From positions 19,541 to 83,540 of the forward strand of contig JAINCQ010000037.1 in NCBI GenBank assembly GCA_036574205.1: 64,000 nucleotides of DNA, written 5' to 3'. Below are positions 3,690 through 15,903 of the stretch, piece by piece (the stretch's first letter is position 1; each line of letters starts with the position of its first letter). The translations under genes were made by a program, and so were the position numbers. Under the pieces are notes generated by a model. That model was not told the DNA's origin and made no database searches. It saw nothing but the letters and a program-made list of their open reading frames with translations. Source of the DNA: Elusimicrobiota bacterium (GTDB lineage Bacteria; Elusimicrobiota; Elusimicrobia; Elusimicrobiales; UBA9959).

Positions 3690-4316
3690 ATGTTTAGAAC
3701 TTTTATTCTTTTGTTAGTATTTGTTGGTGGGATTTATCTTTTGATTCATCAAAGAAAAGAGCAAAAAATGGAACAACAAAGGCTTGCTGAAATAAAAAGA
3801 CAAGAAATAAAAGAAATAGACCCTACTTTACCAGAGATGGTTGCTAATGAGTATATGCTTAGTTTTTCTAAACAGACTATAGAGACATTAAAATTCCTTG
3901 TTTCTGATACTAATGAAAATGTTAGATTTTCAGCTATTGAACTTTTATGGCAGCTTAAAGATAAAAGTATTCCAAAAATAATAAGAAAAAGTTTTGATTC
4001 AGAATCGGAGTCAGCGATAAAAGTAAAAATTGTGGAGATGCTTTCCAAAGAAAAATCCAAACTTTCTCTTCATCTTATTGCTTATGCTCTCAATAATTAC
4101 GATAAACAAACCAAAATAAGGGCTTGCGAGGTCCTTGGAGATTTTATAGACAAGGAAACAATAAATCTTTTAACTCCGGCCTTAAAAGATTATGATGAAG
4201 ATGTGAAAATAAAAGCGCTTGAGTCTATAAATAAAGTCAAAAAAGCAATAGAGCAACACAGGGAACAAAAGGTAAAAGAGATATTTGAGCCCAAGCCGGT
4301 TTTTAAAATAGAATAA
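3690..4316 (+). CDS. Membrane-anchored HEAT-repeat protein
   Basis: 208-aa ORF with an N-terminal TM helix, followed by repeated 'D.(N/D).VR..A...L' HEAT/PBS-lyase-like units (NENVRFSAIELL, QTKIRACEVLG, DEDVKIKALESI). Confidence 0.5.
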   Translation: MFRTFILLLVFVGGIYLLIHQRKEQKMEQQRLAEIKRQEIKEIDPTLPEMVANEYMLSFSKQTIETLKFLVSDTNENVRFSAIELLWQLKDKSIPKIIRKSFDSESESAIKVKIVEMLSKEKSKLSLHLIAYALNNYDKQTKIRACEVLGDFIDKETINLLTPALKDYDEDVKIKALESINKVKKAIEQHREQKVKEIFEPKPVFKIE

Positions 4317-5253: not shown

Positions 5254-6944
5254 TTTATTCTTTCATCTCAATAGGGACAAACATCGGAGATAGAATTTAT
5301 AATATAAAAAAAGCGATAGATTTTATATCGCAAAAGAATCAAATAATAGATATTTCCTCTTTATATATAACAAAGCCTATGTATTATTTAAATCAACCTT
5401 ATTTTATAAATTGCGCTATCAAGATAAAAACGTCTTTGTCACCCTATAATCTTCTTAATTTTATCCTGGAGATTGAAAATAAAATGGGCAGGAAAAGGAG
5501 TTTTAAAAATTCACCGAGAATAATAGATCTTGATTTAATATATTATGGAGATTTGATTATAAAAAGCAAAAAACTTTTTATTCCACATCCAAAATTATAT
5601 GAAAGGGCTTTTGTTCTTATTCCTTTATCAGACATAGATAAGAATTTTTTAGATCCGCTTAAAAATAAAAAAATTGGAGATTTAGTAAAAAATTTGAGTT
5701 TTAATAACGATGAAATATTAAAGATTCCATCCAATTTTAAAGAAACTTTAAATTTTATTTCAAAAATTCCTCCAAGAAACGCTAATGATTTTAATACAAA
5801 ATACATTAAAAAAACTATAAAGTTGCTTGGAACTTCTCAAAATGATTGTGGAAAAGTTATTCATATAACAGGTTCATGCGGAAAAACTGCAACCGCTTTC
5901 TATATTGCAAAATTAATTCAAAGACTTGGATATAATGTTTGTATTTATACAAGTCCGCATATAATGGATATAAGAGAAAGAATTATTTTTAATGGAAAGA
6001 AGATTCCTAAAAAAATTTTTTATAAAAAAATTATTAAGGTAATCTCAGTAGCTCAATATTTGCATTCTTCATTTGAGTATATGACATTGATTGCTATAGA
6101 CTGGTTTTCAGAGTTAAAACCAGATTTTTCAATCATTGAAGTTGGCATGGGAGGAAAAAACGATGCTACAAATATATTTGAAAAAAGTATTTCTGTTTTT
6201 ACATCAATAACATTAGAACATAGTAACTGGCTTGGAAAAAATATTGAAGAGATAGCAAAAAATAAATCCGGGATAATAAAAAGCGGAAGTTTTGTTTTTA
6301 TTTCTGGATTTAATGAAAAGAAAGTGATTGAAGTGATAAAGAATATTGCAGATGCAAAAAAATGTGTTACTTATATATTTAACAGAAAAAACCTGATTGA
6401 AAATTCAAAAACAAATTCTTTTAAAAATATTAATCTTTCCTATGCTTTCTTTATTGTTAAAAAGTTACTAAATAAACTTCCTTCTTCTTTCATTATACCT
6501 CAGCTTCCTGCAAGACAAAAAGTTTTATCTTATAATGGAATAAAGTTTTTTTTCGATGGAGCTCATACAACTCTTTCAATGAAAATACTTTTAGAATATT
6601 TAAAAAAATTAGATTATAGAATTTGCCTGGCTTCTTTTTTAAAAGATAAAAGTCATAAAGATATTATAAATCTGATTTTAGAATCTGGAATTTTTGATAA
6701 AGTAATTCTTGTTAAAGGTACTTCCCAGAGGACTTTTAACCCTTACGATTATAGAGGCATTTCAAATGTAAAAATCTTTTCAAATCAGTTAAATGCTTTA
6801 AATTTTGCCCTTTCTTTTAAAAAAAACATAGTAGTTACTGGAAGCCTTTATTTTTGCGCCGATATCCTTGCTTTAATTAACGGTAAAAAGCCTTTACATC
6901 TTTTAGAACTTGCTATAGATCCTCAAAAACTAATAGCCAATTAA
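5250..6944 (+). CDS. Fusion of HPPK (FolK) and folylpolyglutamate/dihydrofolate synthase (FolC)
   Basis: 564-aa ORF. About the first 160 aa carry HPPK motifs (IGTNIGDR, PRIIDLDLIYY, IPHPKLYERAFVLIPL). The remainder is a Mur-ligase/FolC-type domain (IHITGSCGKTATAF P-loop, YTSPHIMDIRERI, EVGMGG). The start overlaps the folP stop by 4 nt. Confidence 0.8.
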   Translation: MIYSFISIGTNIGDRIYNIKKAIDFISQKNQIIDISSLYITKPMYYLNQPYFINCAIKIKTSLSPYNLLNFILEIENKMGRKRSFKNSPRIIDLDLIYYGDLIIKSKKLFIPHPKLYERAFVLIPLSDIDKNFLDPLKNKKIGDLVKNLSFNNDEILKIPSNFKETLNFISKIPPRNANDFNTKYIKKTIKLLGTSQNDCGKVIHITGSCGKTATAFYIAKLIQRLGYNVCIYTSPHIMDIRERIIFNGKKIPKKIFYKKIIKVISVAQYLHSSFEYMTLIAIDWFSELKPDFSIIEVGMGGKNDATNIFEKSISVFTSITLEHSNWLGKNIEEIAKNKSGIIKSGSFVFISGFNEKKVIEVIKNIADAKKCVTYIFNRKNLIENSKTNSFKNINLSYAFFIVKKLLNKLPSSFIIPQLPARQKVLSYNGIKFFFDGAHTTLSMKILLEYLKKLDYRICLASFLKDKSHKDIINLILESGIFDKVILVKGTSQRTFNPYDYRGISNVKIFSNQLNALNFALSFKKNIVVTGSLYFCADILALINGKKPLHLLELAIDPQKLIAN

Positions 6945-7004
6945 AATCAAGTATTTAAATAATCTAGTTATTGTTTGTGTTTTGTTAAATCTATATGATA
7001 TGTC

Positions 7005-8012
7005 TTATTCTGCTTTTGCTTTTGGTATATGGGTGTATATAGATTTTTCTTTTCTATCAAAAACCGGTTGTTTTATAGGAAAGTCAAAAGAAATGGATAT
7101 ATTATGTGTGTTCCCCAGATCTTTCATTTGCGCAAAGGAATAGTCTATGCTTAAAAATTTAAGATTTAATCCAAACCCAAAAGAAAATCCTCCAACATCG
7201 TTTCTTGATTTCTGGGTGTTTAACCCCCCTCGTATTAGAAAAGATGTATTTTCGCTTGTTTTAAGAGTTAGTTCTCCCCCTAAGTTTATGTAAAGGCTGT
7301 CATTTTTTGGAAGAACCAAATCCGTCGCAAGTAAAAGATTTGGGAAAGGATATATTGCTCCGCCTATTTTAAATTTAAGTGTTATAGGAACAGATTCTTC
7401 ATCGTATCTTAAACCGCTTCCAAGATTTTGCATAAGAAAGCTTAATTTATAAGGTATATATGCAAATTTATATGCTCTTATCCCGAGATCAAAAGCTGTT
7501 GCCTTTGCGTTATGGTATATCCTGGAGTTTATATATTTATAGGCTATTCCCATGGAGACATCAGTTTCTCTATCTGAAAATTCCGTTATTCCTCTTGAAT
7601 ATCCTAAGGTTATAACAGTATCTTTAGGCGAAAATTTCCCTATTATACTCTGGTTTATATCAGTATGTTCTATGGTCCCGATTTCATTCATAAACGCTGA
7701 TATAGCTATAACTGAATCATAGCTTAATCTCTGGGCATATGATATAAAATGGTAATTTATATCTTCAACATATTGAGTTCGTGAAAGCATTATTGAAAAA
7801 CGAGGTATCTCCATAAGTCCAGCTGGATTTGAGTATATGGCTGAGGCGTCGTCTATAACAGCAGATTGCGCGCTCCCCATAGCTATAGCTCTTGGGTTTA
7901 TATCAAGATTTAAAAAATCCCCTGAAGTTATTCCCTTTGAATCTCCAGAAAAATAATCACTAGCATTTAAACTTTCTAAAGCAATTATCAATATTGTTAT
8001 AATCTTTATCAT
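7005..8012 (-). CDS. PorV/PorQ-family outer-membrane beta-barrel protein
   Basis: 335-aa ORF with a signal peptide. It has the N-terminal motif GDFLNLDINPRAIAMGSAQSAVIDDASAIYSNPAGL that I associate with the PorV/PorQ (UPF0164-like) family, and alternating beta-strand patterns through to the C-terminus. It sits directly downstream of a T9SS-type cargo gene. Confidence 0.6.
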   Translation of the reverse strand: MIKIITILIIALESLNASDYFSGDSKGITSGDFLNLDINPRAIAMGSAQSAVIDDASAIYSNPAGLMEIPRFSIMLSRTQYVEDINYHFISYAQRLSYDSVIAISAFMNEIGTIEHTDINQSIIGKFSPKDTVITLGYSRGITEFSDRETDVSMGIAYKYINSRIYHNAKATAFDLGIRAYKFAYIPYKLSFLMQNLGSGLRYDEESVPITLKFKIGGAIYPFPNLLLATDLVLPKNDSLYINLGGELTLKTSENTSFLIRGGLNTQKSRNDVGGFSFGFGLNLKFLSIDYSFAQMKDLGNTHNISISFDFPIKQPVFDRKEKSIYTHIPKAKAE

Positions 8013-8014
8013 AA

Positions 8015-11000
8015 TTATCTTTCAATTGCCAGCTTTATTGTTTTTTTGCCAACCCTTGATTTTATAACACATAAATAAACTCCACTTCCAACAAGTTGTC
8101 CGCTTGAATTTTTCCCATGCCAGTAAGCTGTTCCAGTTGCATCTGCTGCTGTCTCATAAACTTTTTGTCCGCTTATTGTATATATTGTTAGTTTTGCATC
8201 ATCTGGAAGATTTGTTATCGTTATCATCCCCTGTCCTGGTCTATTTGGATAAAATGGATTTGGAAAAACTTTTATGTTATTTAAGTCTGAAGATGGCTGA
8301 ACTAAAATAAGCTGATATATGCTGAAATGATTTAATTCAGCAGTTATTTTCCTTAATCCTTCGTTTATTGTTGTTTTAACAGGTAGACATTGACCAGTCT
8401 GGGGATTATATCTTGCTAGAACAACTCTTGATTTATTTGTATGTATATCTGGTGGAGAGCTTGGATTTACTGCTTCTGATGAAAAGTAATCAAAAGTAAA
8501 GGTAATGGGAACATATGGTTGCTCATTTGCGTATATCCCAAATGTTATTGTACTTCCACCAAAAGTGTATCCACAGTTATTTGAATCTAATTTTGCTATA
8601 GCAATTGGTTGCGGGGTAGTAAAAGATTCTTTTGGAATAAATAATACAACAGGCCTGTTGTCTATTAAATTTCCGCTTATAGTTGTGTCCTCAGATGGGC
8701 TTGTAAGTCCTGATATTGAAGCAGGTGGGGCTCCTTGTGGCCCGGGAAGAGTTACAGCTGGCGTGGTTGTTTGTATCCTTGCTGTTTCAACTCCTTCAGC
8801 ATTTCTTGCGGCAACATCAAAATAATATGTAGTTCTTATCCATAATCCATTTACGGTGTAACTAGTATCTTTGTATTCACTTCCAAAAGGAATAGGGGTT
8901 GAGATAAAAGGCGATTCAAAACTTACACTCGTAGCTCTTAATTCGTATATTGTTTCAGGAGAATTTTCCTGAGGATCCCAGTTGACTGTTACACCGGTCA
9001 AAGAAACAGAAGATACATAAACCCTGGCAACTTCTTGAGCAAGAGTGTATTTTGAGCCAAGAGATGCTGCTTCCTCTGTCATCCTTCCCTCTTTATTTAT
9101 AGCATAAACTCTTGCGTAATATCTACGATTTGGTTTTAAATCTCTGGCATACTCTGAAACTATTGGCAGTGTTGTTGAATCAGGAGTAACCTCATAACTG
9201 GTATAATTTGAAAATGTTGGTGTTTCAGATATATCAAGCCTATATCTTGTATTTATGCCTTTTTCTATATCTGCATCATTTCCATTTGAATCCCAGCTTA
9301 CTTTAAAACTTCCTGTTGTTATGTATGTAAAAACATTTGGTTGAGCTGGGGATGGAACTGCGGCAAGCGTATAGACTGGCTCTGATATAGAAAAAGGTCC
9401 ATAAACAAGTTCTCCATATGTCTGGGCATCCTGTTTGTATGACCTTACTTTTACCTGATATGCGGTGTTGGTGGAAAGTCCAATCTGAGTATAATAAGGA
9501 TAAGATGTGGAACTTAAAAAGACTGAAACATCTATTGTAGATTTAAAAATAGGGTCATTTGGATCTATTCCTATACGGTATTCATATATTTCATATCCGC
9601 TAGCGCCACCGGCTTTGTTCCATGACCATTTGATTGATGTAGTTGTCATTGGTGTTCCACTGAGTCCAACTATATTTCCAACTGTTATTGTTGATACGGG
9701 AGTATTAAACGTTGACGACACCCCTGTACAGTTTTGATTTGGATTTTGAGTGTCATAAACAGTTTCTACTCCATTTCCATTTCTTGCCTTAACTCTGAAA
9801 TAATATCGGTTATTTGGTTCTAAGTTTCTTATAGTGAATTTTGTGTCTTTATAATTATTTACAAAAGACAATGCTACTGAATACTCTGAAAAATTAGGAT
9901 ATGTTGATATATCCACCCTATATGGTGTAAAATCTGGATTGTTCCCGTTTGAATCCCATTCTATTTCAACAGTGTCAAAACTGGCGTAATTTACCCTTGT
10001 ACATGAAGGCGGATTGGCTTTAGTATATACCGTACTTACTGCTACTGCAAATGTTGATGGATCTGAAAATCCGCCTATGTTATAACAACCAACTTTTATG
10101 CTTGATGGGGTATTTGGTAAAAGTCCCTGCTGGTAATATGTTGCAGGGGCGCTTAAAGGAGATGGAAATGGAACAGTTGTTATAAAAACATTTGAAGCAG
10201 AAAATATTGCAAAACCATTAGAATTGCCTTCAGTTTGTAAATTCCAGTTCCATCTTATACTGGTTGTGCTCGCTGATTCCTCTGCAACAAGGTTTGTTAT
10301 GGTGCAGATTGGTCTTGGTGTTGAAGCCTGAACCATATATCCATCAGAACAAATTCCAGCATTACAAACATAGAGATAATACCAACCATATGGAAGTTCT
10401 TGAGGAGTTGTTGGTGTTTTAACTATTATAGTTGAAAGAGTTACGTTCCAGTTTAATGCATTAAAAGTTGAGATATAAATCTGAGAAGAGAGATCTATCA
10501 TAAATTCATTATTTATTCCTCTTAAAATAACCCTTGGCTTTCCAAAATCTGATTGATGACCACCTGAACCTGAATTTGATGCATCTGAAACTGAATGTAG
10601 ATTTGAATATGAACTATAAATAGTAATATAATCTCCTCTATCAAATCTTAAGGTTGCGCTTGAGATATGAGGTTTTCTTGTTGTTAATGTGTCATAACCA
10701 TATATATCTGGTTCATCAAAAAGATAATATTTTCCTTTTACATTGTCGGTATAGTCTGTTCCAGTCCATCCGCCAGTAACCATAACATAATTGGATGGCA
10801 GAAGAACGCTTGAATGTCTTATTAATTTTTCGGTATCACCGAAAAGCGCTTCATTTCTTGAGTAATAAAAATCGGTTATAAAGTTTTTAGCCGTATATTC
10901 AATAAGGCTTCCAGATGTGATTTTTTCTCCTCCAGTAATTAATATCCTTTTATTTGGTAAAAGTATACTTGAATGGTTTGATACTTCTGCTGCAGATATA

Positions 11001-13996
11001 TCATCTTCTCCATCACCAAGTACTTGCCATGTAGATCCATTAAAAACCTCAACCTTATCTATTGTCCATTCGCCTCTATTTCCGCCAAAGATAAGGACCC
11101 GTCCATCATCCATTAAATGAGCGGTATGGGAATGTCTTTTATAATTTATACTTCCTGGTGAAGAAAATGTATTTGTGGCTGGATCATATATTTCATAACT
11201 TGATAAAACATCTGTTGCATTTATTCCACCAACTATTATAACTCTTCCATCTTTCATCAAAGTGGCGGTATGTTTTGTTCTTGGATTTGCCATGGAGCCA
11301 ACTGGAATAAAAATATTTGCTGTAGTTATAAAAAGCTCAGCTGAGCTCAAGTATGTTCCAGAAGAAACTCCGCCGGTTATAAGAACATTCCCATTTGGAA
11401 GGAGGGTTTGAGTGTGTCCAGCTCTTTTATAATTCATCCTGGCTGTTGGGACAAAGGTTTTAACTGAGGGATAATATATTTCTGCTGAATCAAGTGCTTG
11501 AGACTGATTGACATCTCCCTGAACTCCGCCTGTTATAAGAACAGTTCCATTTGGAAGAAGTGTGTCTCTATGATATGCTCTTGCTTCGGTCATTGTTGAG
11601 ACAATTGTCCATAAGTCAAGATATTTGTTATATTCTTCACAGATATCAAGGCTTTGTTTCCCGTCAGTTCCTCCACATACAATCACAGTCCCGTCGTTTA
11701 GAACTGTAGTTGTGTGATTAGCTCTTTTAACTTTAAGTCTTGAGAAATCCTTCCATTTATCAGATAATTGTTTAATAAGTAGGAAAGCTATGTTAGATGA
11801 ATAAAATGTCGGGTCAGTTCTAAGACAGTCATTAGCTGGATCTGATTCGCAGTTTCTTCCACCTCCTATAATTGGTGTCCCGGATTCTGATATGTTTCCA
11901 GTATGATCAAATATTGGGTATGGCTTAAGATAATCTAGAGTAAGTATTTCATCTGGATCAAAATAAAATTGATTAGTTTTTGGATTAAAGTATGTAATAT
12001 CAGAGAAAAGCATATCCCTTACAACAGCTCTTGATTCACCTGTATTTATTGTAACACCTTCACTAGGAGTATTGTAATAAATACCATCTGAAATAAAAGA
12101 AAGTTTTACTGTTAAAGAATTTATATTATTTCCGATAAGGCAGTTTTGTATTTCTGTGTTGTCTAAGGTATAATCTGTAGTATTGGATATCACTCCTGTA
12201 AGATTTGAAAATGTTGCACCTGGAAATAAAATATTTTGTCCTGAAACCGGTGCAATGGCATCTGAACTCATATCTCCTGCCGATAGTGTTAAATTGCATA
12301 AATCACTTGAAAAAGAAAGAGATTTAATAAACATTCTTCCTGTTATGTTATAGCCATTAAACATTTTTAATTCTTCAGGAAGTTGGAGCGTTGTGTTCCC
12401 AAGAGTTATACTACATCCCGCACAGTCAGAAAACTCTAAAATTTCTCCGCTTGGAATGCTCGGGGTTAAAGAGCTAAAATCAGCAGTTGAAATTTGAGGG
12501 GAATTTAAATTGGTTAATTCTAAAGGATAAAAATAAACTGTAGCGTTTACTTGTAATGGATCGGGGGAACTTTTAAGAACAAGATCAGCTTTTAATCTTC
12601 TTATTAAATTTCCATTTTCATCATAATATCCAACTGAGGCACCATCTAATTCTGCAGTAGTCTTGCCTAAGAATATATCCATATTTCCTATTTTTATTGA
12701 TGGTTTAGGTGGATTAGTAGGTGTGGGTGGTTCATAAAATATATCTCCGTTTATTATTCTTCCAGTAACTGGTCTTGAAAGTTCTAAATCTTCCTCAAAG
12801 CTTACTGTTCCAGATATTGGACCTGTTAGTATCCTTACATCAGACATATCTCCACTCATTTCCATAGATGAATAATCAAATGTTATAGGCGAGTATGAAG
12901 TCAATGAACGTGGCTGAAAGTATGTTACCGGTATATTTCCTCTTCCGCCAAATAATACGAGTATTCCATCAGGTTTTAACATGGAAAATTGATTTGAAAT
13001 TCTATATGGTAGAAGTTTATATTGATTGGCTTCTACTGGAACCCTTGCCCCATTTTTATCAAATATTTCCATAGCATCAACAAATCCCCATGTCCCATGA
13101 TTTTGTCCTTCTTGTATTTCTTGAGAATCATTATCTTTGCTTTCTATATCATAACCATTATATTCATTATAACCACCTATTATGGCAACATTGCTGTTAT
13201 TTAAAACAACAGCTGAATGATAGATTCTTGAAAAAAATAGAGGTTCTGGAGAAGGAGTAAAGCTATTCGTTATAGGGTCATATATCTCTTGAGTCGGAGT
13301 AAAAGTTGCTGGATTTCCAAGCTGGGTTATTCCACCTGACATCAATACCTTTCCATTAGAAAGAAGTGAAGCCGTGTGTCCAAACCTTGAAGATGTCATA
13401 TTTGGTCCAGATTTAAATTGAGTGGTTGATGTTATAAATATTTCACAAGAATTTGTTACAGTTCCAGCATTAGATTGTCCTCCACATATCAAGACATTTC
13501 CTGACTCAGGACCTACAGTTAAAAGCGTTGCTGTGTGCCCTGCTCTTTGCAATAACATAGTATTGACTATTGGAGAGCATGTATATGGTGGTGATGAAAG
13601 ACATATTTCAGCTGAGTTTGTTGGTGTTCCGGTTGATATTAGATTTTTTGGGAAGTTATTGGTATACGGTGAAGGTGGATTGGTTGGATAATGAAAAGAA
13701 ATTGATGTATAACCTCCTGCTACAAGAATTCTGCCATCTGGAAGCAATGTCATAGTATGATTTGTTCTTGAAGTATTTAGAGTTTTTGTCAGGAATGGTG
13801 TTCCACCTGCTGATGTTATTATAGGTGTTGAAATTTTTATTAAACATTGATTTGTAACAGTATTTATACCTGTAACCCCACCACATGTCATTGTATTTGC
13901 ATTTGGAAGAAGAACTGAAGCAGTGTTAAATTGAGAAAAAAGATTAACTGAACATAATAAGATAAACAGAAATAAAATATCCTTCATATTTTTCAT
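8015..13996 (-). CDS. Giant secreted Kelch-repeat / fibronectin-III protein with a T9SS-type (FlgD-Ig-like) C-terminal sorting domain
   Basis: 1993-aa ORF with a signal peptide. There are two blocks of Kelch-like blades (recurring R..HT.TLL.DGRVL..GG). Several FN3-like modules follow (W....GA..Y.., YYFRVKA.N..G). The last ~85 aa (VFPNPFYPN...LTIYTISGQKVY...GVYLCVIK...KLAIER; about nt 8018-8275) match the por-secretion C-terminal domain pattern. Confidence 0.75.
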   Translation of the reverse strand: MKNMKDILFLFILLCSVNLFSQFNTASVLLPNANTMTCGGVTGINTVTNQCLIKISTPIITSAGGTPFLTKTLNTSRTNHTMTLLPDGRILVAGGYTSISFHYPTNPPSPYTNNFPKNLISTGTPTNSAEICLSSPPYTCSPIVNTMLLQRAGHTATLLTVGPESGNVLICGGQSNAGTVTNSCEIFITSTTQFKSGPNMTSSRFGHTASLLSNGKVLMSGGITQLGNPATFTPTQEIYDPITNSFTPSPEPLFFSRIYHSAVVLNNSNVAIIGGYNEYNGYDIESKDNDSQEIQEGQNHGTWGFVDAMEIFDKNGARVPVEANQYKLLPYRISNQFSMLKPDGILVLFGGRGNIPVTYFQPRSLTSYSPITFDYSSMEMSGDMSDVRILTGPISGTVSFEEDLELSRPVTGRIINGDIFYEPPTPTNPPKPSIKIGNMDIFLGKTTAELDGASVGYYDENGNLIRRLKADLVLKSSPDPLQVNATVYFYPLELTNLNSPQISTADFSSLTPSIPSGEILEFSDCAGCSITLGNTTLQLPEELKMFNGYNITGRMFIKSLSFSSDLCNLTLSAGDMSSDAIAPVSGQNILFPGATFSNLTGVISNTTDYTLDNTEIQNCLIGNNINSLTVKLSFISDGIYYNTPSEGVTINTGESRAVVRDMLFSDITYFNPKTNQFYFDPDEILTLDYLKPYPIFDHTGNISESGTPIIGGGRNCESDPANDCLRTDPTFYSSNIAFLLIKQLSDKWKDFSRLKVKRANHTTTVLNDGTVIVCGGTDGKQSLDICEEYNKYLDLWTIVSTMTEARAYHRDTLLPNGTVLITGGVQGDVNQSQALDSAEIYYPSVKTFVPTARMNYKRAGHTQTLLPNGNVLITGGVSSGTYLSSAELFITTANIFIPVGSMANPRTKHTATLMKDGRVIIVGGINATDVLSSYEIYDPATNTFSSPGSINYKRHSHTAHLMDDGRVLIFGGNRGEWTIDKVEVFNGSTWQVLGDGEDDISAAEVSNHSSILLPNKRILITGGEKITSGSLIEYTAKNFITDFYYSRNEALFGDTEKLIRHSSVLLPSNYVMVTGGWTGTDYTDNVKGKYYLFDEPDIYGYDTLTTRKPHISSATLRFDRGDYITIYSSYSNLHSVSDASNSGSGGHQSDFGKPRVILRGINNEFMIDLSSQIYISTFNALNWNVTLSTIIVKTPTTPQELPYGWYYLYVCNAGICSDGYMVQASTPRPICTITNLVAEESASTTSIRWNWNLQTEGNSNGFAIFSASNVFITTVPFPSPLSAPATYYQQGLLPNTPSSIKVGCYNIGGFSDPSTFAVAVSTVYTKANPPSCTRVNYASFDTVEIEWDSNGNNPDFTPYRVDISTYPNFSEYSVALSFVNNYKDTKFTIRNLEPNNRYYFRVKARNGNGVETVYDTQNPNQNCTGVSSTFNTPVSTITVGNIVGLSGTPMTTTSIKWSWNKAGGASGYEIYEYRIGIDPNDPIFKSTIDVSVFLSSTSYPYYTQIGLSTNTAYQVKVRSYKQDAQTYGELVYGPFSISEPVYTLAAVPSPAQPNVFTYITTGSFKVSWDSNGNDADIEKGINTRYRLDISETPTFSNYTSYEVTPDSTTLPIVSEYARDLKPNRRYYARVYAINKEGRMTEEAASLGSKYTLAQEVARVYVSSVSLTGVTVNWDPQENSPETIYELRATSVSFESPFISTPIPFGSEYKDTSYTVNGLWIRTTYYFDVAARNAEGVETARIQTTTPAVTLPGPQGAPPASISGLTSPSEDTTISGNLIDNRPVVLFIPKESFTTPQPIAIAKLDSNNCGYTFGGSTITFGIYANEQPYVPITFTFDYFSSEAVNPSSPPDIHTNKSRVVLARYNPQTGQCLPVKTTINEGLRKITAELNHFSIYQLILVQPSSDLNNIKVFPNPFYPNRPGQGMITITNLPDDAKLTIYTISGQKVYETAADATGTAYWHGKNSSGQLVGSGVYLCVIKSRVGKKTIKLAIER

Positions 13997-14048: not shown

Positions 14049-14555
14049 TCATTTAACTTCTAAAATTGAGTATTTCCCATCTTTTGTTTTATTTGCTTTT
14101 GGATCTAAAACTTTATTCCCGTCAACAATAAAAAAATATCTATACTCGCCAGGATCTTTTATAAAAACTTCATACTCCCACTCTCCCGCATTTACTTTCT
14201 TCATATCTTTTTCTTTCCATCCGAAAAAACTTGCATTTATTTTTACTTTTTTAGCCTTTTTATTCTGATATTTGATTTTTATTTTTTGTGACTTTAAGGT
14301 GTGATTTTGCTTCTGAGCTTCAGGAGTTATTTGCTGATTTATTGGAGAAGTATCGGTTTTAACTTCGTTTTTTTGATCTGCTGTTTCATTTAGCTTAATT
14401 TGTTCGGCTGGTGAGTTTTTTTTAACAATTTTCGCCTCAGATATTTCAATCGTATCACCATAAAGATATACACTAACTCTATTATAAATCATTTTTCCCG
14501 AAAAAACCATCAATATTACAGTTATAATTATTTTTAAAATTAATTTATTTTTCAT
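14049..14555 (-). CDS. Secreted or anchored protein with a C-terminal CBM48/AMPK-beta-like (E-set) glycogen-binding-type domain
   Basis: 168-aa ORF with an N-terminal TM/signal segment. The C-terminal ~80 aa (VKINASFFGWKEKDMKKVNAGEWEYEVFIKDPGEYRYFFIVDGNKVLDP) fit the AMPK1_CBM pattern. A GAGG ribosome-binding site lies upstream. Confidence 0.45.
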   Translation of the reverse strand: MKNKLILKIIITVILMVFSGKMIYNRVSVYLYGDTIEISEAKIVKKNSPAEQIKLNETADQKNEVKTDTSPINQQITPEAQKQNHTLKSQKIKIKYQNKKAKKVKINASFFGWKEKDMKKVNAGEWEYEVFIKDPGEYRYFFIVDGNKVLDPKANKTKDGKYSILEVK

Positions 14556-14631
14556 ATTTACCTCGCAAGCTTATATATAGAAACTCCCCTTTGCATAAAT
14601 ATTACCTTCCGTGACGATTTAATTGCTATAT

Positions 14632-14654
14632 CCTCTCTCCTTTTTTGGAGAGGG
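14632..14654. other. Imperfect hairpin: cctctctcc / tttttt / ggagaggg
   Basis: Read directly. It has 6 perfect base pairs (ctctcc/ggagag) plus partial extension around a T6 loop. Confidence 0.5.
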
Positions 14655-14692
14655 TTAGGGGGAGGAAATTTATTTTTCACCCTCATCCTTCA

Positions 14693-14715
14693 CCTTCCCC
14701 CATCAAGGGGGAAGG
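14693..14715. other. Perfect 9-bp G/C hairpin: ccttccccc / atcaa / gggggaagg
   Basis: Read directly. On the plus strand it is followed by aattttaatat, so it could act as an intrinsic terminator for plus-strand read-through, but no plus-strand gene lies upstream. Confidence 0.5.
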
Positions 14716-14756
14716 AATTTTAATATCTCAAAAGAACTCTCTCAGAGATAAATTTT

Positions 14757-15012
14757 GCTCACCGCTCATTTTTTCTCAAACCCTTGCTCCTCGCAAAACT
14801 GTAAGCGCAAGTTTTGCTGCGGACTTTCAAGTCACGCATAACCTTGTCGGCTTGCGCGACCCCGCCTCGTTCGCCTGCATTGCCCAAAGCGAACTGCGGC
14901 CTTGCGAACAGCACGCGAAACCGTTTGAGGTTTCGCTCTAAAGGCAGTCCTCACCCGTGCAAAGCCAAACCATTGGGTTTGCTCAGAACCAGCAAGCGGG
15001 CGATGGGAATCG
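14757..15012 (-). repeat. GC-rich composite repeat unit L1 (256 nt)
   Basis: L1 shares two identical boxes with unit L2: a 19-nt box gctcaccgctcattttttc (14757-14775) and a 35-nt box tttgctcagaaccagcaagcgggcgatgggaatcg (14978-15012). The 35-nt box ends in an 18-nt copy of the tRNA-Gly 3' end. L1 contains two copies of the two-hairpin module. Confidence 0.8.
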
Positions 15013-15028
15013 GTTGCAAATAAAATTC

Positions 15029-15157
15029 GCTCACCGCTCATTTTTTCGCAACCCGCCCCTCGTCCGACTGTATAGCCAAAGTCGGACTGCGGGCTTTCGA
15101 TTCCCACGCAAAGCCTATCGGCTTTGCTCAGAACCAGCAAGCGGGCGATGGGAATCG
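15029..15157 (-). repeat. GC-rich composite repeat unit L2 (129 nt)
   Basis: L2 has the same 19-nt box (15029-15047) and 35-nt box (15123-15157) as L1, with one copy of the two-hairpin module between them. Confidence 0.8.
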
Positions 15158-15251
15158 AACCCTATGCCGCTATGGTTGCTCAAATAGAGCTTCCCAGCGG
15201 GCGATGGGAATCGAACCCTGTGCCGCTATGGTCGCTCAAATAGAGCTTCCC
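15140..15251 (-). repeat. Two tandem 56-bp units, each carrying a copy of the 3'-terminal 23 nt of tRNA-Gly
   Basis: Units 15140-15195 and 15196-15251 differ at 2 positions. Each has agcgggcgatgggaatcgaaccc (identical to tRNA positions 15252-15274) followed by a 33-nt segment ending in agagcttccc. Confidence 0.85.
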
Positions 15252-15322
15252 AGCGGGCGATGGGAATCGAACCCACGTCTAAAGCTTGGGAAGCTCTCGT
15301 TCTACCATTGAACTACGCCCGC
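15252..15322 (-). tRNA. tRNA-Gly (anticodon CCC), 71 nt, no encoded CCA
   Basis: The reverse complement reads GCGGGCG-TA-GTTC-AATGGTA-GAAC-G-AGAGC-TTCCCAA-GCTTT-AGAC-GTGGG-TTCGATT-CCCAT-CGCCCGC-T. This is a full cloverleaf, nearly identical over the 5' half to E. coli tRNA-Gly(CCC) as I remember it. The 3' flank is GGG, not CCA. Confidence 0.92.
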
Positions 15323-15327
15323 ATCTT

Positions 15328-15333
15328 ATTATA
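15328..15333 (-). promoter_or_regulatory. Candidate -10 box (TATAAT) for the tRNA-Gly transcript
   Basis: The minus strand reads ...TAGTATAATTTTATAAAGGTATAATAAGAT|GCGGGCG. A perfect TATAAT ends 5 nt before the mature tRNA 5' end. No convincing -35 box. Confidence 0.3.
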
Positions 15334-15357
15334 CCTTTATAAAATTATACTAAAAAA

Positions 15358-15903
15358 TCATCTATTTTTTATTAAACTCAAAAATTCATTTCTTATTTTT
15401 TCGTCTTTTTCAAAACAACCAAGCATTGAACTAGTTATAGCTATTGATGTTTCATTCCTTACTCCTCTTGATGTCATGCACAGATGTTGAGCCTCTATTA
15501 TAACTCCAACCCCTTTTGGTTTTATTTTCTCAAATATAGTTTTTGATATTTCAACAGTAAGCCTTTCTTGAATTTGTAGCCTTCTTGAAAAAACTTCTAC
15601 AATTCTAGGAATTTTGGAAAGGCCTATTATAACTCCATCTGGAATATATGCAACATGTGCCTTGCCAAAAAATGGAAGAAGGTGGTGTTCACAAGTCGAA
15701 TAAAATGTTATGTCTTTTACTATAACCATCTCTTTATAATCAACTTTGAAAAAAGCGCCGTTTAAAACTTTATCTATATCCTGAGAATACCCACTAAAAA
15801 TTTCACCCAATGCCTTCCTTACCCTTTCCGGGGTTTTTATAAGACCTTCCCTTTTCGGATTATCCCCTATCTTTTTAATTAGTTCTTCTATGTTTTTTTC
15901 CAT
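15358..15903 (-). CDS. folE: GTP cyclohydrolase I
   Basis: 181-aa ORF with STCEHHLLPFFGKAHVAYIP and EAQHLCMTSRG motifs. Confidence 0.9.
   Translation of the reverse strand: MEKNIEELIKKIGDNPKREGLIKTPERVRKALGEIFSGYSQDIDKVLNGAFFKVDYKEMVIVKDITFYSTCEHHLLPFFGKAHVAYIPDGVIIGLSKIPRIVEVFSRRLQIQERLTVEISKTIFEKIKPKGVGVIIEAQHLCMTSRGVRNETSIAITSSMLGCFEKDEKIRNEFLSLIKNR

Follow-up and report, generated by a model that had tools for sequence, protein, structure and literature searches.

Why should a bacterial tRNA gene be followed by several copies of its own 3' end? Large islands borne by integrases classically insert at tRNA and tmRNA genes, and a sequence-only reading of a 64,000-nt stretch of an Elusimicrobiota genome (the window) had offered three origins for the copies found behind its tRNA-Gly(CCC) gene: serial integration followed by deletion, miniature non-autonomous elements mobilised in trans, or functional tRNA-like minihelices. 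Here we describe the units that make up this array, the family to which one of them belongs and the explanations that may account for both.

Two kinds of unit behind tRNA-Gly(CCC)

The host gene is intact and lacks an encoded CCA; its family, RF00005, was the only Rfam 15 entry above the gathering threshold in the window. The downstream repeats correspond to its last 17-23 nt. The 23-mer AGCGGGCGATGGGAATCGAACCC occurs three times exactly, at 15140, 15196 and 15252, with no match in dinucleotide shuffles, and there are four occurrences of the 18-mer AGCGGGCGATGGGAATCG, of which the additional one lies at 14995-15012, against a chance expectation of 0.01 matches. The exact 23-nt copies and the 18-nt version had been correctly described in the sequence-only reading, and the spacings of 56, 56 and 145 nt agree with its figures. 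Over 15140-15274, TRF reports a period of 56 nt with 2.4 copies and 97% matches. Proceeding 3' of the tRNA, two 56-nt units are followed by a 127-nt element (A) and then by a decayed relative (B). The repeats represent two unrelated kinds of unit, the 56-nt units on the one hand and elements of a family that we call E on the other. The entire feature extends over approximately 14748-15322, and element B falls outside the interval first reported. The features are as follows, all on the minus strand:

15252-15322, minus strand: tRNA-Gly(CCC), intact host gene (ARAGORN; Rfam RF00005, 71.6 bits)
15196-15251, minus strand: 56-nt unit U1, 33-nt spacer (15219-15251) plus an exact 23-nt copy of tRNA positions 51-73 (15196-15218)
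15140-15195, minus strand: 56-nt unit U2, spacer (15163-15195) plus an exact 23-nt tRNA-end copy (15140-15162)
14995-15139, minus strand: element A, complete E member matching covariance model R1, 145 nt including the terminal tRNA fragment
15108-15127, minus strand: helix H1 of element A, 8-bp hairpin with a GAUA loop; 8 of 8 pairs change on both sides
15096-15106, minus strand: anti-T segment of element A, TGGGAATCGAA, 11-nt antisense match to tRNA-Gly
15052-15093, minus strand: S2/H2 arm of element A, YCC...GGR helix enclosing CCGCAG-hairpin-CGAGG (motif match 15058-15092)
15013-15051, minus strand: long P/H3 arm of element A (GGTTGCGAAAAAATGAGC GGTGA GCGAATTTTATTTGCAACC), 15 pairs
14995-15012, minus strand: terminal sense copy of element A, tRNA-Gly positions 56/57-73 (the 18-nt repeat)
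14748-14994, minus strand: element B, decayed or composite E relative (covariance model R1, 68.4 bits at 14723-14867)

U2 is a tandem duplicate of U1 that differs by two substitutions, and the identity of 96% points to one recent tandem duplication. We considered whether the 56-nt units are relatives of family E, but dropped this idea, as local alignment with elements A and B was no better than with shuffles and neither 110 loci nor the remainder of the window yielded a homologue. A CRISPR array with 23-nt repeats and 33-nt spacers (15140-15274) was likewise rejected because identity between the two 'spacers' reaches 94%, the supposed repeat is simply the end of the tRNA and cas domains are absent from the window ORFs scanned.

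The minihelix proposal applies to these 56-nt units only, and it is very unlikely that U1 and U2 are tRNA-like acceptor/T-arm small RNAs independent of family E. Each unit is predicted to form two hairpins, GCUC-UAUUU-GAGC and AGCGG...CCGCU, the second of which encloses an intact T-loop; this pairing around the T-arm copy, and the 3-bp T-stem that comes with it, had been noticed beforehand. U1 also contains a terminator-like hairpin. The 5' end of the U1 spacer, GGGAAGCTCT, is the reverse complement of tRNA-Gly positions 27-36 in the anticodon arm, a 10-nt match equalled by 6 of 2000 shuffles, and TGGGAA in the same spacer could pair with the T-arm sequence TTCCCA. However, the fold barely beats that of shuffles (z close to -2: -19.9 kcal/mol and z -2.1 for U1, z -1.7 for the other unit), the T-stem is shortened and the discriminator is paired. 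The two substitutions are not compensatory, and comparative support is lacking, since homologues are absent from the 110 loci and from the rest of the window.

A family of elements at the 3' ends of tRNA and tmRNA genes

Element A matches covariance model R1 over its full length with 155.2 bits (E 3e-39). The 127-nt segment that the sequence-only reading took for a possible miniature non-autonomous element is thus a full member of family E, which is found at 11 tRNA species and tmRNA. A motif scan of metagenome contigs yielded at least 13 loci, each with the element immediately behind a tRNA or tmRNA gene (Arg-GCG, Met, Leu-TAA, Lys-CTT, Arg-TCT, His, Val-CAC, Thr-CGT, Leu-CAG and tmRNA); behind Gly-CCC it is present in the window, L019 and L100. 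Metagenomic and MAG loci gave about 20 copies, of which all taxonomically placeable ones belong to Elusimicrobiota, and in 1.18 Mb (76 loci) from other phyla the covariance model found no match. All complete copies lie directly behind their host gene and are co-oriented with it. Thirteen loci have a period of 144-149 nt, with an element proper of about 127 nt that starts with TGCTGG... and ends in ...TTTATTTGCAAC. Terminal inverted repeats are missing, and no inverted repeats were reported in 14500-15800. Contigs break at the junction between tRNA and E in at least six loci, as expected for a dispersed repeat.

The fold of E on the tRNA-sense strand comprises five conserved helices, in which 95.0% of cells are paired, compared with 80.2% in shuffles and 36-52% in slid-alignment controls. 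Double changes affect 22 of 38 pairs, which none of 500 shuffles reached; compensatory changes occur in four helices and one G.U pair is invariant. Among the cells there are 30 G.U against 8 A.C, the loops are of the G...A type, and the sense strand is the stabler one in 15 of 15 elements, with a mean difference of 9.7 kcal/mol (element A: -70.4 kcal/mol with z -6.0 on the sense strand and -58.4 kcal/mol on the antisense strand). Helix H1 varies in sequence across the family while its structure is kept, and the S2/H2 arm shows a U-A / C-G switch in S2 and compensation in 4 of 5 H2 pairs. The P/H3 arm, which holds the invariant G.U (alignment columns 101/130), is near-invariant in sequence throughout the family except for its five outermost pairs, which co-vary. 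An intrinsic-terminator reading of the H3 hairpin and U-tract was set aside, because co-variation of the enclosing P stem means that the strand must extend past both.

Element B has in common with A the 17-nt start TGCTGGTTCTGAGCAAA and the 3' block GAAAAAATGAGCGGTGAGCAAAATTTAT, and it contains two CCGCAG-hairpin-CGAGG modules (14865-14899 and 14789-14822). It is devoid of the P 3' strand, of a terminal tRNA fragment and of an anti-T segment matching tRNA-Gly.

The anti-T segment of element A is the reverse complement of tRNA-Gly positions 54-64, i.e., the T-loop and the 3' strand of the T-stem, and in 13 of 14 elements this segment is antisense to the T-loop/T-stem of the element's own host over 10-12 nt. 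Even the deviant tmRNA loop TGCGAATCCC is matched by GGGATTCGCA in its own element. The terminal sense fragment always starts at host position 56/57 and ends at position 73, and is predicted to pair with the anti-T segment in helix S1. In L019, L081, L086 and L090 the direct repeat has a constant minimal length of 17 nt (57-73). The T-loop TTC (54-56) is missing at the distal junction of all copies, where identity starts at 57, and the boundary TTC|R57 is seen in every tRNA host, with TGC at that place in the tmRNA host. In both loci with a divergent terminal fragment (L085 His and L091 Met) the anti-T segment tracks the tRNA and not the fragment, as would be the case if the distal copy had been displaced and were decaying. 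The sequence-only reading mentions neither the antisense T-arm segment nor the conserved fold, nor element B as a decayed relative.

This arrangement resembles the layout of a TnpB omega-RNA or Cas12 crRNA, in which E would be a guide-RNA gene with tRNA positions 57-73 as a 17-nt guide and the near-universal T-loop GTTC as a TAM/PAM-like motif. Guides of IS200/IS605 TnpB and type V systems are typically 17-20 nt long, the end of the E scaffold coincides exactly with the start of the 17-nt match, and TTC precedes that match in all tRNA hosts. We nevertheless regard this explanation as highly improbable. The regenerated tRNA gene would be a perfect self-target, the seed of the putative guide would be sequestered in helix S1, and the tmRNA host has TGC in place of TTC. 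Moreover, no TnpA (Y1 HUH), TnpB or Cas12-like ORF was found in the E-bearing fragments (up to 64 kb per genome), no protein family is common to the flanks of the 15 loci compared, and Rfam searches of six E-bearing stretches with E values up to 10 returned neither IS605-orfB nor related models, nor anything else consistent besides tRNA/tmRNA. Weak matches to miRNA, snoRNA and tmRNA_permuted families were dismissed as noise or as caused by the T-arm. An archaeal-type T-loop intron (56/57) was also rejected, as the upstream tRNA is already complete; to our knowledge, no bulge-helix-bulge splicing endonuclease exists in bacteria.

Elements that integrate at tDNAs, with tRNA and tmRNA genes among their targets, are recognised by an intact gene followed by a co-oriented 3' fragment (PMC4383910), a signature in line with the insertion element proposed below. 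In all complete E copies as well as in U1/U2 such a displaced fragment bounds the insert. Starting from the same signature, with fragments that begin in the T-arm, one could regard the array as attL/attR arms between copies of an att core, left when integrase islands or prophages that had entered tRNA-Gly one after another were deleted; tDNAs are known to carry tandem arrays (PMC4383910), and a displaced 5' tRNA fragment is present in L097-L099. This origin, the first of the three proposed, is extremely unlikely. Independent deletions would not produce one and the same 144-149-nt unit at 13 loci and 11 tRNAs, and the four compensatory helices, with 22 compensatory pairs and an invariant G.U, reflect selection on a single-strand fold and not on double-stranded protein-binding arms.

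Enzymes of this kind were not encountered either. We scanned 53 of the 60 listed ORFs of the window against Pfam (at least 120 aa; the others are short and overlap larger ORFs on the opposite strand). All matches were to housekeeping families and nine ORFs had none; neither Phage_integrase nor any other recombinase, transposase or reverse-transcriptase family was matched, in agreement with the absence of an integrase noted earlier, and the inserts themselves measure only 33-127 nt. All-against-all BLAST of the ORFs from 15 loci (the window, L019 and L081-L093) identified no flank-linked protein family common to them, only synteny between pairs of related loci. BLAST of element A against INPHARED phages and PLSDB plasmids gave no match, and pattern scans of IMG/VR with E gave none or two chance matches in coding regions with no tRNA nearby.

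Insertion element or host RNA

The orthologous folE-tRNA-Gly-CBM locus is polymorphic. L001 has an empty site, L019 and L100/L101 carry one E, L096 retains a 40-nt E remnant and L103 another remnant, whereas L097-L099 have unrelated sequence after tRNA-Gly although their FolE protein is identical to that of L096. An identical, non-polymorphic array in relatives, named in the sequence-only reading as an argument against mobility, is therefore not what the locus shows. Tandem or partial second E copies are present in L087, L090, L091, L084 and L085, and the two L085 copies have a P-stem variant that is found nowhere else. Some variants are shared by the E copies of one genome and absent from copies at the orthologous locus in other genomes. 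The three Gly elements have no H1 or H2 in common, whereas L100 (Gly) and the Lys elements L084 and L093 show 88% identity in H1, and the H2 of one Lys element is 100% identical to that of a Val element. On the other hand, E is kept at tRNA-Lys(CTT) in four genomes (L084, L093, L109 and L110), beside a protein that is 70-78% identical to that of L084, with no E at the tRNA-Leu(TAG) gene a few hundred nt downstream in L084 and L093.

The explanation that we prefer, with the balance of probability roughly level, is that E is a non-autonomous, protein-less insertion element specific for the 3' ends of tRNA and tmRNA genes. The window locus would then be a pile-up of small insertion elements behind tRNA-Gly(CCC), with B as an older, decayed copy. 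On the tRNA-sense strand, E would adopt a three-way junction in which S1 joins the anti-T segment (54-64) to the terminal copy (57 to the discriminator). We infer that it enters in the T-loop/3'-end region of the tRNA gene, to leave an intact tRNA gene, the element and a 17-nt tRNA-end copy; this copy could be a 3'-end replacement borne by the element, as in tDNA islands, or a 17-bp target duplication (57-73). Catalysis would fall to an enzyme whose gene lies elsewhere and which acts in trans, and the anti-T segment would serve in target recognition. With the target regenerated, further copies could enter beside the tRNA body, and the flanking direct repeats would permit unequal crossing-over, tandem amplification and clean loss, so that arrays, remnants and empty sites would all follow. 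U1/U2 would stem from a separate event at the same tRNA end, followed by their one tandem duplication. The sequence-only interpretation is supported in part: of its three options, miniature elements mobilised in trans come closest, though mobility is a reading, for which we see about equal grounds to accept and to doubt.

Several observations speak against an insertion element. No autonomous partner or vehicle was found in the scanned ORFs, the flanks or the phage, plasmid and IMG/VR sets. A host switch requires that both the anti-T segment and the tRNA-end copy change, for which a simple known mechanism is lacking. The missing TTC at the distal junction does not fit a classical 7-bp overlap in the T-loop; the overlap (crossover) region may instead lie within positions 57-63. 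In addition, persistence at tRNA-Lys(CTT) and the common remnants also fit old vertical inheritance with occasional loss, and the RNA hallmarks of the E fold would be expected from a host-useful RNA too.

As the main rival explanation, possible but rather unlikely, E may be such an RNA: a non-coding trailer RNA co-transcribed with the tRNA, vertically inherited and homogenised by gene conversion. It would start at the RNase Z cleavage position and act in cis or trans on its cognate tRNA, perhaps through T-arm pairing in maturation, quality control or decoying, and differences in occupancy would stem from loss by deletion between the flanking repeats, without any transposition. E abuts the tRNA, always in the same orientation, with a fold that is specific to the sense strand; its GC content is 50% in a genome of 31%, as is seen for structural RNA genes, and its 3' domain is near-invariant between genomes that have a FolE identity of only 72-82%. 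Retention at tRNA-Lys and, in three lineages, at tRNA-Gly, the L096 and L103 remnants that resemble losses, and the absence of a mobility enzyme from the scanned window ORFs and compared flanks also agree with it. Yet tandem arrays and truncated second copies are hard to reconcile with function. The clean empty site in L001, the unrelated sequence in L097-L099 beside the same FolE as in L096 and the lack of E at tRNA-Leu(TAG) also speak against a host RNA. Elements on the same tRNA-Gly differ in H1/H2 while elements on different tRNAs match, and spread over 11 tRNA species and tmRNA would still require a copying mechanism.

Returning to the insertion element, it is tempting to speculate, although we consider it doubtful, that E is a self-contained, nucleic-acid-guided targeting module with which a trans-acting enzyme inserts the 127-nt element at tRNA genes. 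A folded transcript or a single DNA strand would offer the anti-T segment together with the sense copy (57-73), and the two would pair with both strands of the tRNA gene at the T-loop/3' end. The enzyme would be of a type new to tRNA genes, and E would represent a retargetable class spread over at least 11 tRNA species and tmRNA.

Relation to known systems and implications

Our searches of the literature turned up no description of such a tRNA-end element, and family E is apparently undescribed both there and in Rfam. Islands and prophages inserted at tDNAs by tyrosine integrases likewise leave a displaced 3' fragment starting in the T-arm, target many tRNAs and tmRNA, form arrays at one tDNA and regenerate their target (PMC4383910). 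They are, however, several kb or more in size with attP arms of about 250 bp, whereas the E insert is 127 nt, has no integrase or gene, and consists in its interior of a conserved single-strand fold with an anti-T-arm segment; the absence of the T-loop TTC from the distal junction is a further difference.

Among non-autonomous elements, CIMEs arise by deletion from recognisable ICEs or IMEs and are far larger than E, and MITEs are bounded by terminal inverted repeats and make short duplications of their target. Both att-flanked cis-mobilizable elements (PMC5704250, PMC7563491) and MITEs are gene-less, with direct repeats of the target and arrays, and are presumably mobilised in trans as E would be. 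E differs from them in having a covarying fold, no inverted termini and no known parent element. In CTX-phi attP(+), the XerCD substrate (PMC3442271), and in integron attC (PMC4792948), inverted segments about 90 nt apart pair as in E to form a one-strand duplex that mimics the chromosomal target, structure is conserved above sequence, and insertion is orientation-specific and gives arrays. These are DNA sites used by known tyrosine recombinases at dif or attI, while the target of E is a T-arm and no recombinase was found in the window ORFs scanned; the G...A loops and invariant G.U of E are also more RNA-like.

IS200/IS605 elements, PATEs and omega-RNAs have no inverted termini, carry strand-specific subterminal hairpins, insert 3' of a short motif, and combine an internal target-pairing segment with a structured 3' end and a subsequent flank-derived stretch of about 17 nt. 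E would be alike in its hairpins, its lack of inverted termini, its place 3' of the T-loop TTC at tRNA hosts (TGC at the tmRNA host), its putative target-pairing segment and its structured 3' end followed by about 17 nt. Its pairing segment is 10-12 nt long, however, against 4 nt in theirs, it would need to carry a tRNA 3' end, and it has neither TnpA/TnpB nearby nor an Rfam match. The bridge (seek) RNAs of IS110/IS1111 are structured RNAs encoded by the element that contain sense and antisense matches to the target, as E does. Theirs match the two target halves around a core, whereas the E segments cover the same positions and pair with each other; IS110/IS1111 elements also possess a DEDD recombinase gene, which E does not.

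In practical terms, E breaks metagenome assemblies at tRNA genes and creates tRNA fragments that annotation pipelines may miscall; its covariance model is ready for use on public genomes. An island-like signature arises here from a gene-less 127-nt element with a conserved fold and two segments that match the host gene. If E is mobile, the choice of target would lie in the element's own nucleic acid, which would place it alongside bridge-RNA and omega-RNA systems and make it a compact, naturally retargeted scaffold for insertion specific to tRNA genes. As a host RNA, by contrast, E would add to the tRNA-linked RNAs a new one that occurs throughout the lineage and whose pairing partner, the T-arm, is normally buried in the tRNA elbow.

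The array behind tRNA-Gly(CCC)

The sequence-only reading had pointed to copies of the tRNA-Gly(CCC) 3' end downstream of the gene, and the searches bear this out: exact copies of the last 23 nt lie at 15196-15218 and 15140-15162, with no match in any shuffle, and one of the last 18 nt at 14995-15012, against a chance expectation of 0.01 matches. The array has a 56-nt period with 97% matches (TRF), is ~50% GC compared with ~31% for the window, and lies in a chromosomal, housekeeping neighbourhood (folE, tRNA, array, CBM-domain gene, 1993-aa Kelch protein). A database FolE with 100% identity to that of the window bears the label of an Elusimicrobiota MAG. It comprises two 56-nt units, U1 and U2, and two members, the complete A and the decayed B, of a family of ~127-nt protein-less folded elements, here called E.

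Features of the window locus, in tRNA direction (minus strand)
15322-15252, minus: tRNA-Gly(CCC), Rfam 71.6 bits
minus: U1, 56 nt (33-nt spacer and 23-nt tRNA-end copy)
minus: U2, 56 nt, 96% identity to U1
minus: element A, 127 nt plus 18-nt tRNA fragment
minus: element B, ~247 nt, without a tRNA fragment behind it

Elements A and B have in common their first 17 nt and the 3' block GAAAAAATGAGCGGTGAGCRAAWTTTAT. A contains the motif CCGCAG-hairpin-CGAGG once and B has it twice, with three stems that differ in sequence and all pair. Between element B and the CBM gene (14619-14725) are two purine/pyrimidine-rich hairpins, CCTTCCCCCTTGATGGGGGAAGG and CTCTCCAAAAAAGGAGAG, which are the source of weak Rfam miRNA-model matches; the former (14693-14715) scored as terminator-like on the plus strand. 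The genes for a small AMPK1_CBM-domain protein (14049-14555) and the Kelch/fn3 protein (8015-13996), with a weak C-terminal CHU_C (type IX secretion) match, are syntenic with folE and tRNA-Gly in all Elusimicrobiales relatives with long enough contigs.

U1 and U2 represent one unit duplicated once, with two substitutions, and have no similarity to A or B and no homologues in any sequence searched. The spacer start, GGGAAGCTCT, is antisense to the tRNA anticodon arm (equalled by 6 of 2000 shuffles), and TGGGAA within the spacer pairs with the T-arm as well, forming a terminator-like hairpin. The unit's order of antisense to tRNA, hairpin and sense tRNA end parallels the layout of E in miniature. 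The predicted unit fold, a small hairpin and an imperfect acceptor/T-arm hairpin, is weak (z ~ -2), and we give little weight to the proposal that the units are functional minihelices.

A structured element family tailored to its host tRNA

A composite motif scan of metagenome contigs yielded 13 loci, in all of which the element lies directly 3' of a tRNA or tmRNA gene (Arg-GCG, Met, Leu-TAA, Lys-CTT, Arg-TCT, Val-CAC, Thr-CGT, Leu-CAG, tmRNA). A further copy follows tRNA-His (L085); Gly-CCC carries E in the window, L019 and L100/L101, and Lys-CTT in L084, L093 and L110, and also in L109, decayed and as a long variant. The tRNA end and the end of the tRNA fragment behind it are 144-149 nt apart in 13 loci and, with extra spacer, 217-222 nt apart in the two tRNA-Met loci. 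A covariance model built on 15 copies gave scores of 155 bits for element A and 68 bits for B and found nothing in 76 loci of other phyla (1.18 Mb), in which no tRNA gene called by ARAGORN is followed by a repeat of its 3' end. All taxonomically placeable loci belong to Elusimicrobiota.

The long variant (L109 7331-7533; L090 ~3693-3870) has an extra domain of ~70 nt after helix H2, CGAGTGGACTTT...GGACAC followed by the hairpin GTGGCA...TGCCAC. The L109 copy has degenerate host-matching segments (anti-T segment and terminal fragment, described below). At L090 the variant is the distal copy, and its 5' half matches the standard proximal copy (3 mismatches in 80 nt). Three independent loci, L109 7610-7716 (Lys), L091 4422-4505 (Met) and L087 13996-14028 (Val-like), have arrays of 7-nt units (TTTGAAC / AACTTTA; also periods 14, 21 and 28) immediately behind E. 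The arrays are found nowhere else in the 110 loci and are absent from the window; they may be an accessory component of E or a satellite unrelated to it. Three short-read contigs (L105 3546-3616, L106 2366-2436, L107 2498-2567) end within 2 bases of the last tRNA-Gly(CCC) base, and other contig ends, among L092, L110, L087 and L108, fall inside E or just before tRNA-Lys; E behaves like a dispersed repeat, interrupting assemblies at tRNA genes.

Two segments of E follow the host gene. In 13 of 14 elements, the anti-T segment (10-12 nt immediately 5' of AAAGYCCGCAG) is perfectly antisense to positions 54-64 of the tRNA that the element follows; the 14th has a 1-nt deletion. The match extends to the tmRNA host, whose unusual loop, TGCGAATCCC, is answered by GGGATTCGCA. 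The element ends in a terminal fragment of at least 17 nt that repeats, in sense orientation, the host sequence running from position 56/57 through the discriminator; behind it there is sometimes a further, truncated copy of E. In the two cases where the terminal fragment and the tRNA differ (L085 His, L091 Met), it is the tRNA that the anti-T segment matches. The distal copy at the tmRNA locus keeps an encoded CCA, which is absent from the regenerated gene end.

RNAalifold on a MAFFT alignment of E copies gave five helices: H1, S1 (anti-T segment with terminal fragment), S2 (YCC/GGR), H2 and a long P/H3 arm. Paired cells amounted to 95.0%, compared with 80.2% in shuffles and 36-52% with slid partners, and 22 of 38 pairs changed on both sides, which was matched by none of 500 shuffles. 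S2 switches from U-A to C-G with the flanking purine changing along, and the five outer pairs of P co-vary around an invariant inner part. One G.U pair never varies, and 5 of 15 sequences have G.U at a second position; overall, 30 cells are G.U versus 8 A.C, and the sense strand is the stabler one in 15/15 elements (mean 9.7 kcal/mol). These counts and the strand stability therefore assign the fold to the tRNA-sense strand. We read the loops of the G...A type, in many H1 hairpins and in H3, as leaning towards RNA. No Rfam 15 family matches E. E might be a vertically inherited host RNA, the main rival reading, which we consider less likely than an insertion element.

Variation behind the orthologous tRNA-Gly

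The folE-tRNA-Gly-CBM-Kelch synteny is conserved and the space behind the tRNA varies.

State behind tRNA-Gly in related genomes
L001: 10 nt, empty
L019, L100/L101: one E
L096: 40-nt E remnant (leader, H1, first anti-T bases)
L097-L099: unrelated sequence; FolE identical to L096
L103: degenerate H3-like remnant
L105-L107: contig stops at or within 2 bases of the last tRNA-Gly base

The sequence-only reading had held that an identical array in relatives would argue against mobility; with these varied states, the locus therefore offers no such argument.

Shared parts cut across the hosts. One Lys and one Val element have 100% identical H2; one Leu-CAG and one Lys element have H1 96% identical and H2 just 42%; the three Gly elements have neither H1 nor H2 in common. 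The Gly element of L100 has an H1 with 88% identity to that of the Lys elements in L084 and L093, and L108, from the assembly of L100, holds the closest relative (78%) of an L084 protein. Both copies in L085 carry a private P-stem variant. Copies within a genome are therefore more alike than copies at orthologous loci across genomes; either transposition or gene conversion among dispersed repeats would be expected to leave such a pattern.

In L097-L099, the stretch from upstream of tRNA-Gly to just behind it (L097 10860-11060, L098 10810-11010, L099 8290-8480) also contains a displaced piece of the gene's 5' end (positions 1-12, gcgggcgtagtt) ~50 nt upstream of the intact gene, interrupted by a 43-nt GC-rich hairpin (ccctgcccgccgaagc...gcgtaggcggg), with a similar hairpin just 3' of the tRNA; L096 has neither fragment nor hairpin. 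These therefore represent a second kind of small element or a tRNA-fragment scar. L096 has an IS3-family transposase pair (HTH_Tnp_1 and rve; 6381-7548) between oppC-like and CCA-adding enzyme genes that is absent from L097-L099, so these very close genomes are unlike elsewhere in the region as well. In L019 (9768-10000), tRNA-Gly and E lie upstream of folE, whose start codon is 13 nt behind the terminal fragment, whereas the tRNA is downstream of folE in the window (15252-15357), L001, L096-L103 and L105-L107; the gene order around the tRNA is locally rearranged.

Mobility and nearest known systems

No protein family is common to the flanks of the compared loci, and E copies are absent from IMG/VR, phage and plasmid collections. 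IS200/IS605-type elements with omega-RNAs and IS110 bridge RNAs have adjacent genes and a guide geometry unlike E, and a guide-RNA gene of a TnpB- or Cas12-like system seems to us an improbable identity for it. Recombinase, transposase and reverse-transcriptase families had no match among 53 window ORFs scanned; we likewise rate integrase scars as a slight prospect. The genomic signature of E is that of tDNA-integrating islands (PMC4383910). E differs from these in being 127 nt long and gene-less, and from their gene-less derivatives in size, fold and the lack of a known parent element. CTX-phi attP(+) and integron attC (PMC3442271, PMC4792948) are folded single-strand sites, with another target, a known enzyme and none of the RNA-like features of E. 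We found no description of E in Rfam or in the literature searched.

Insertion would take place at the T-loop/3'-end region and regenerate the gene. Either the element carries positions 57-73 and would enter at 56|57, or it would enter behind the discriminator and duplicate a constant 17 bp of the target; the two descriptions are formally equivalent and both fit the data. The order full copy, fragment, 5' remnant, unrelated flank recurs in L084, L085, L088 and L091, and would fit cycles of insertion or duplication beside the tRNA followed by distal deletion, with the L096 state as a putative intermediate. Every mobile model is weakest on retargeting, which requires a change in both the anti-T segment and the tRNA-end copy. 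Altogether, E is a conserved, strand-specific, tRNA-tailored family of structured elements at tRNA and tmRNA gene ends that occurs in presence/absence, tandem and remnant states, and we would give it an even chance of being a non-autonomous insertion element.
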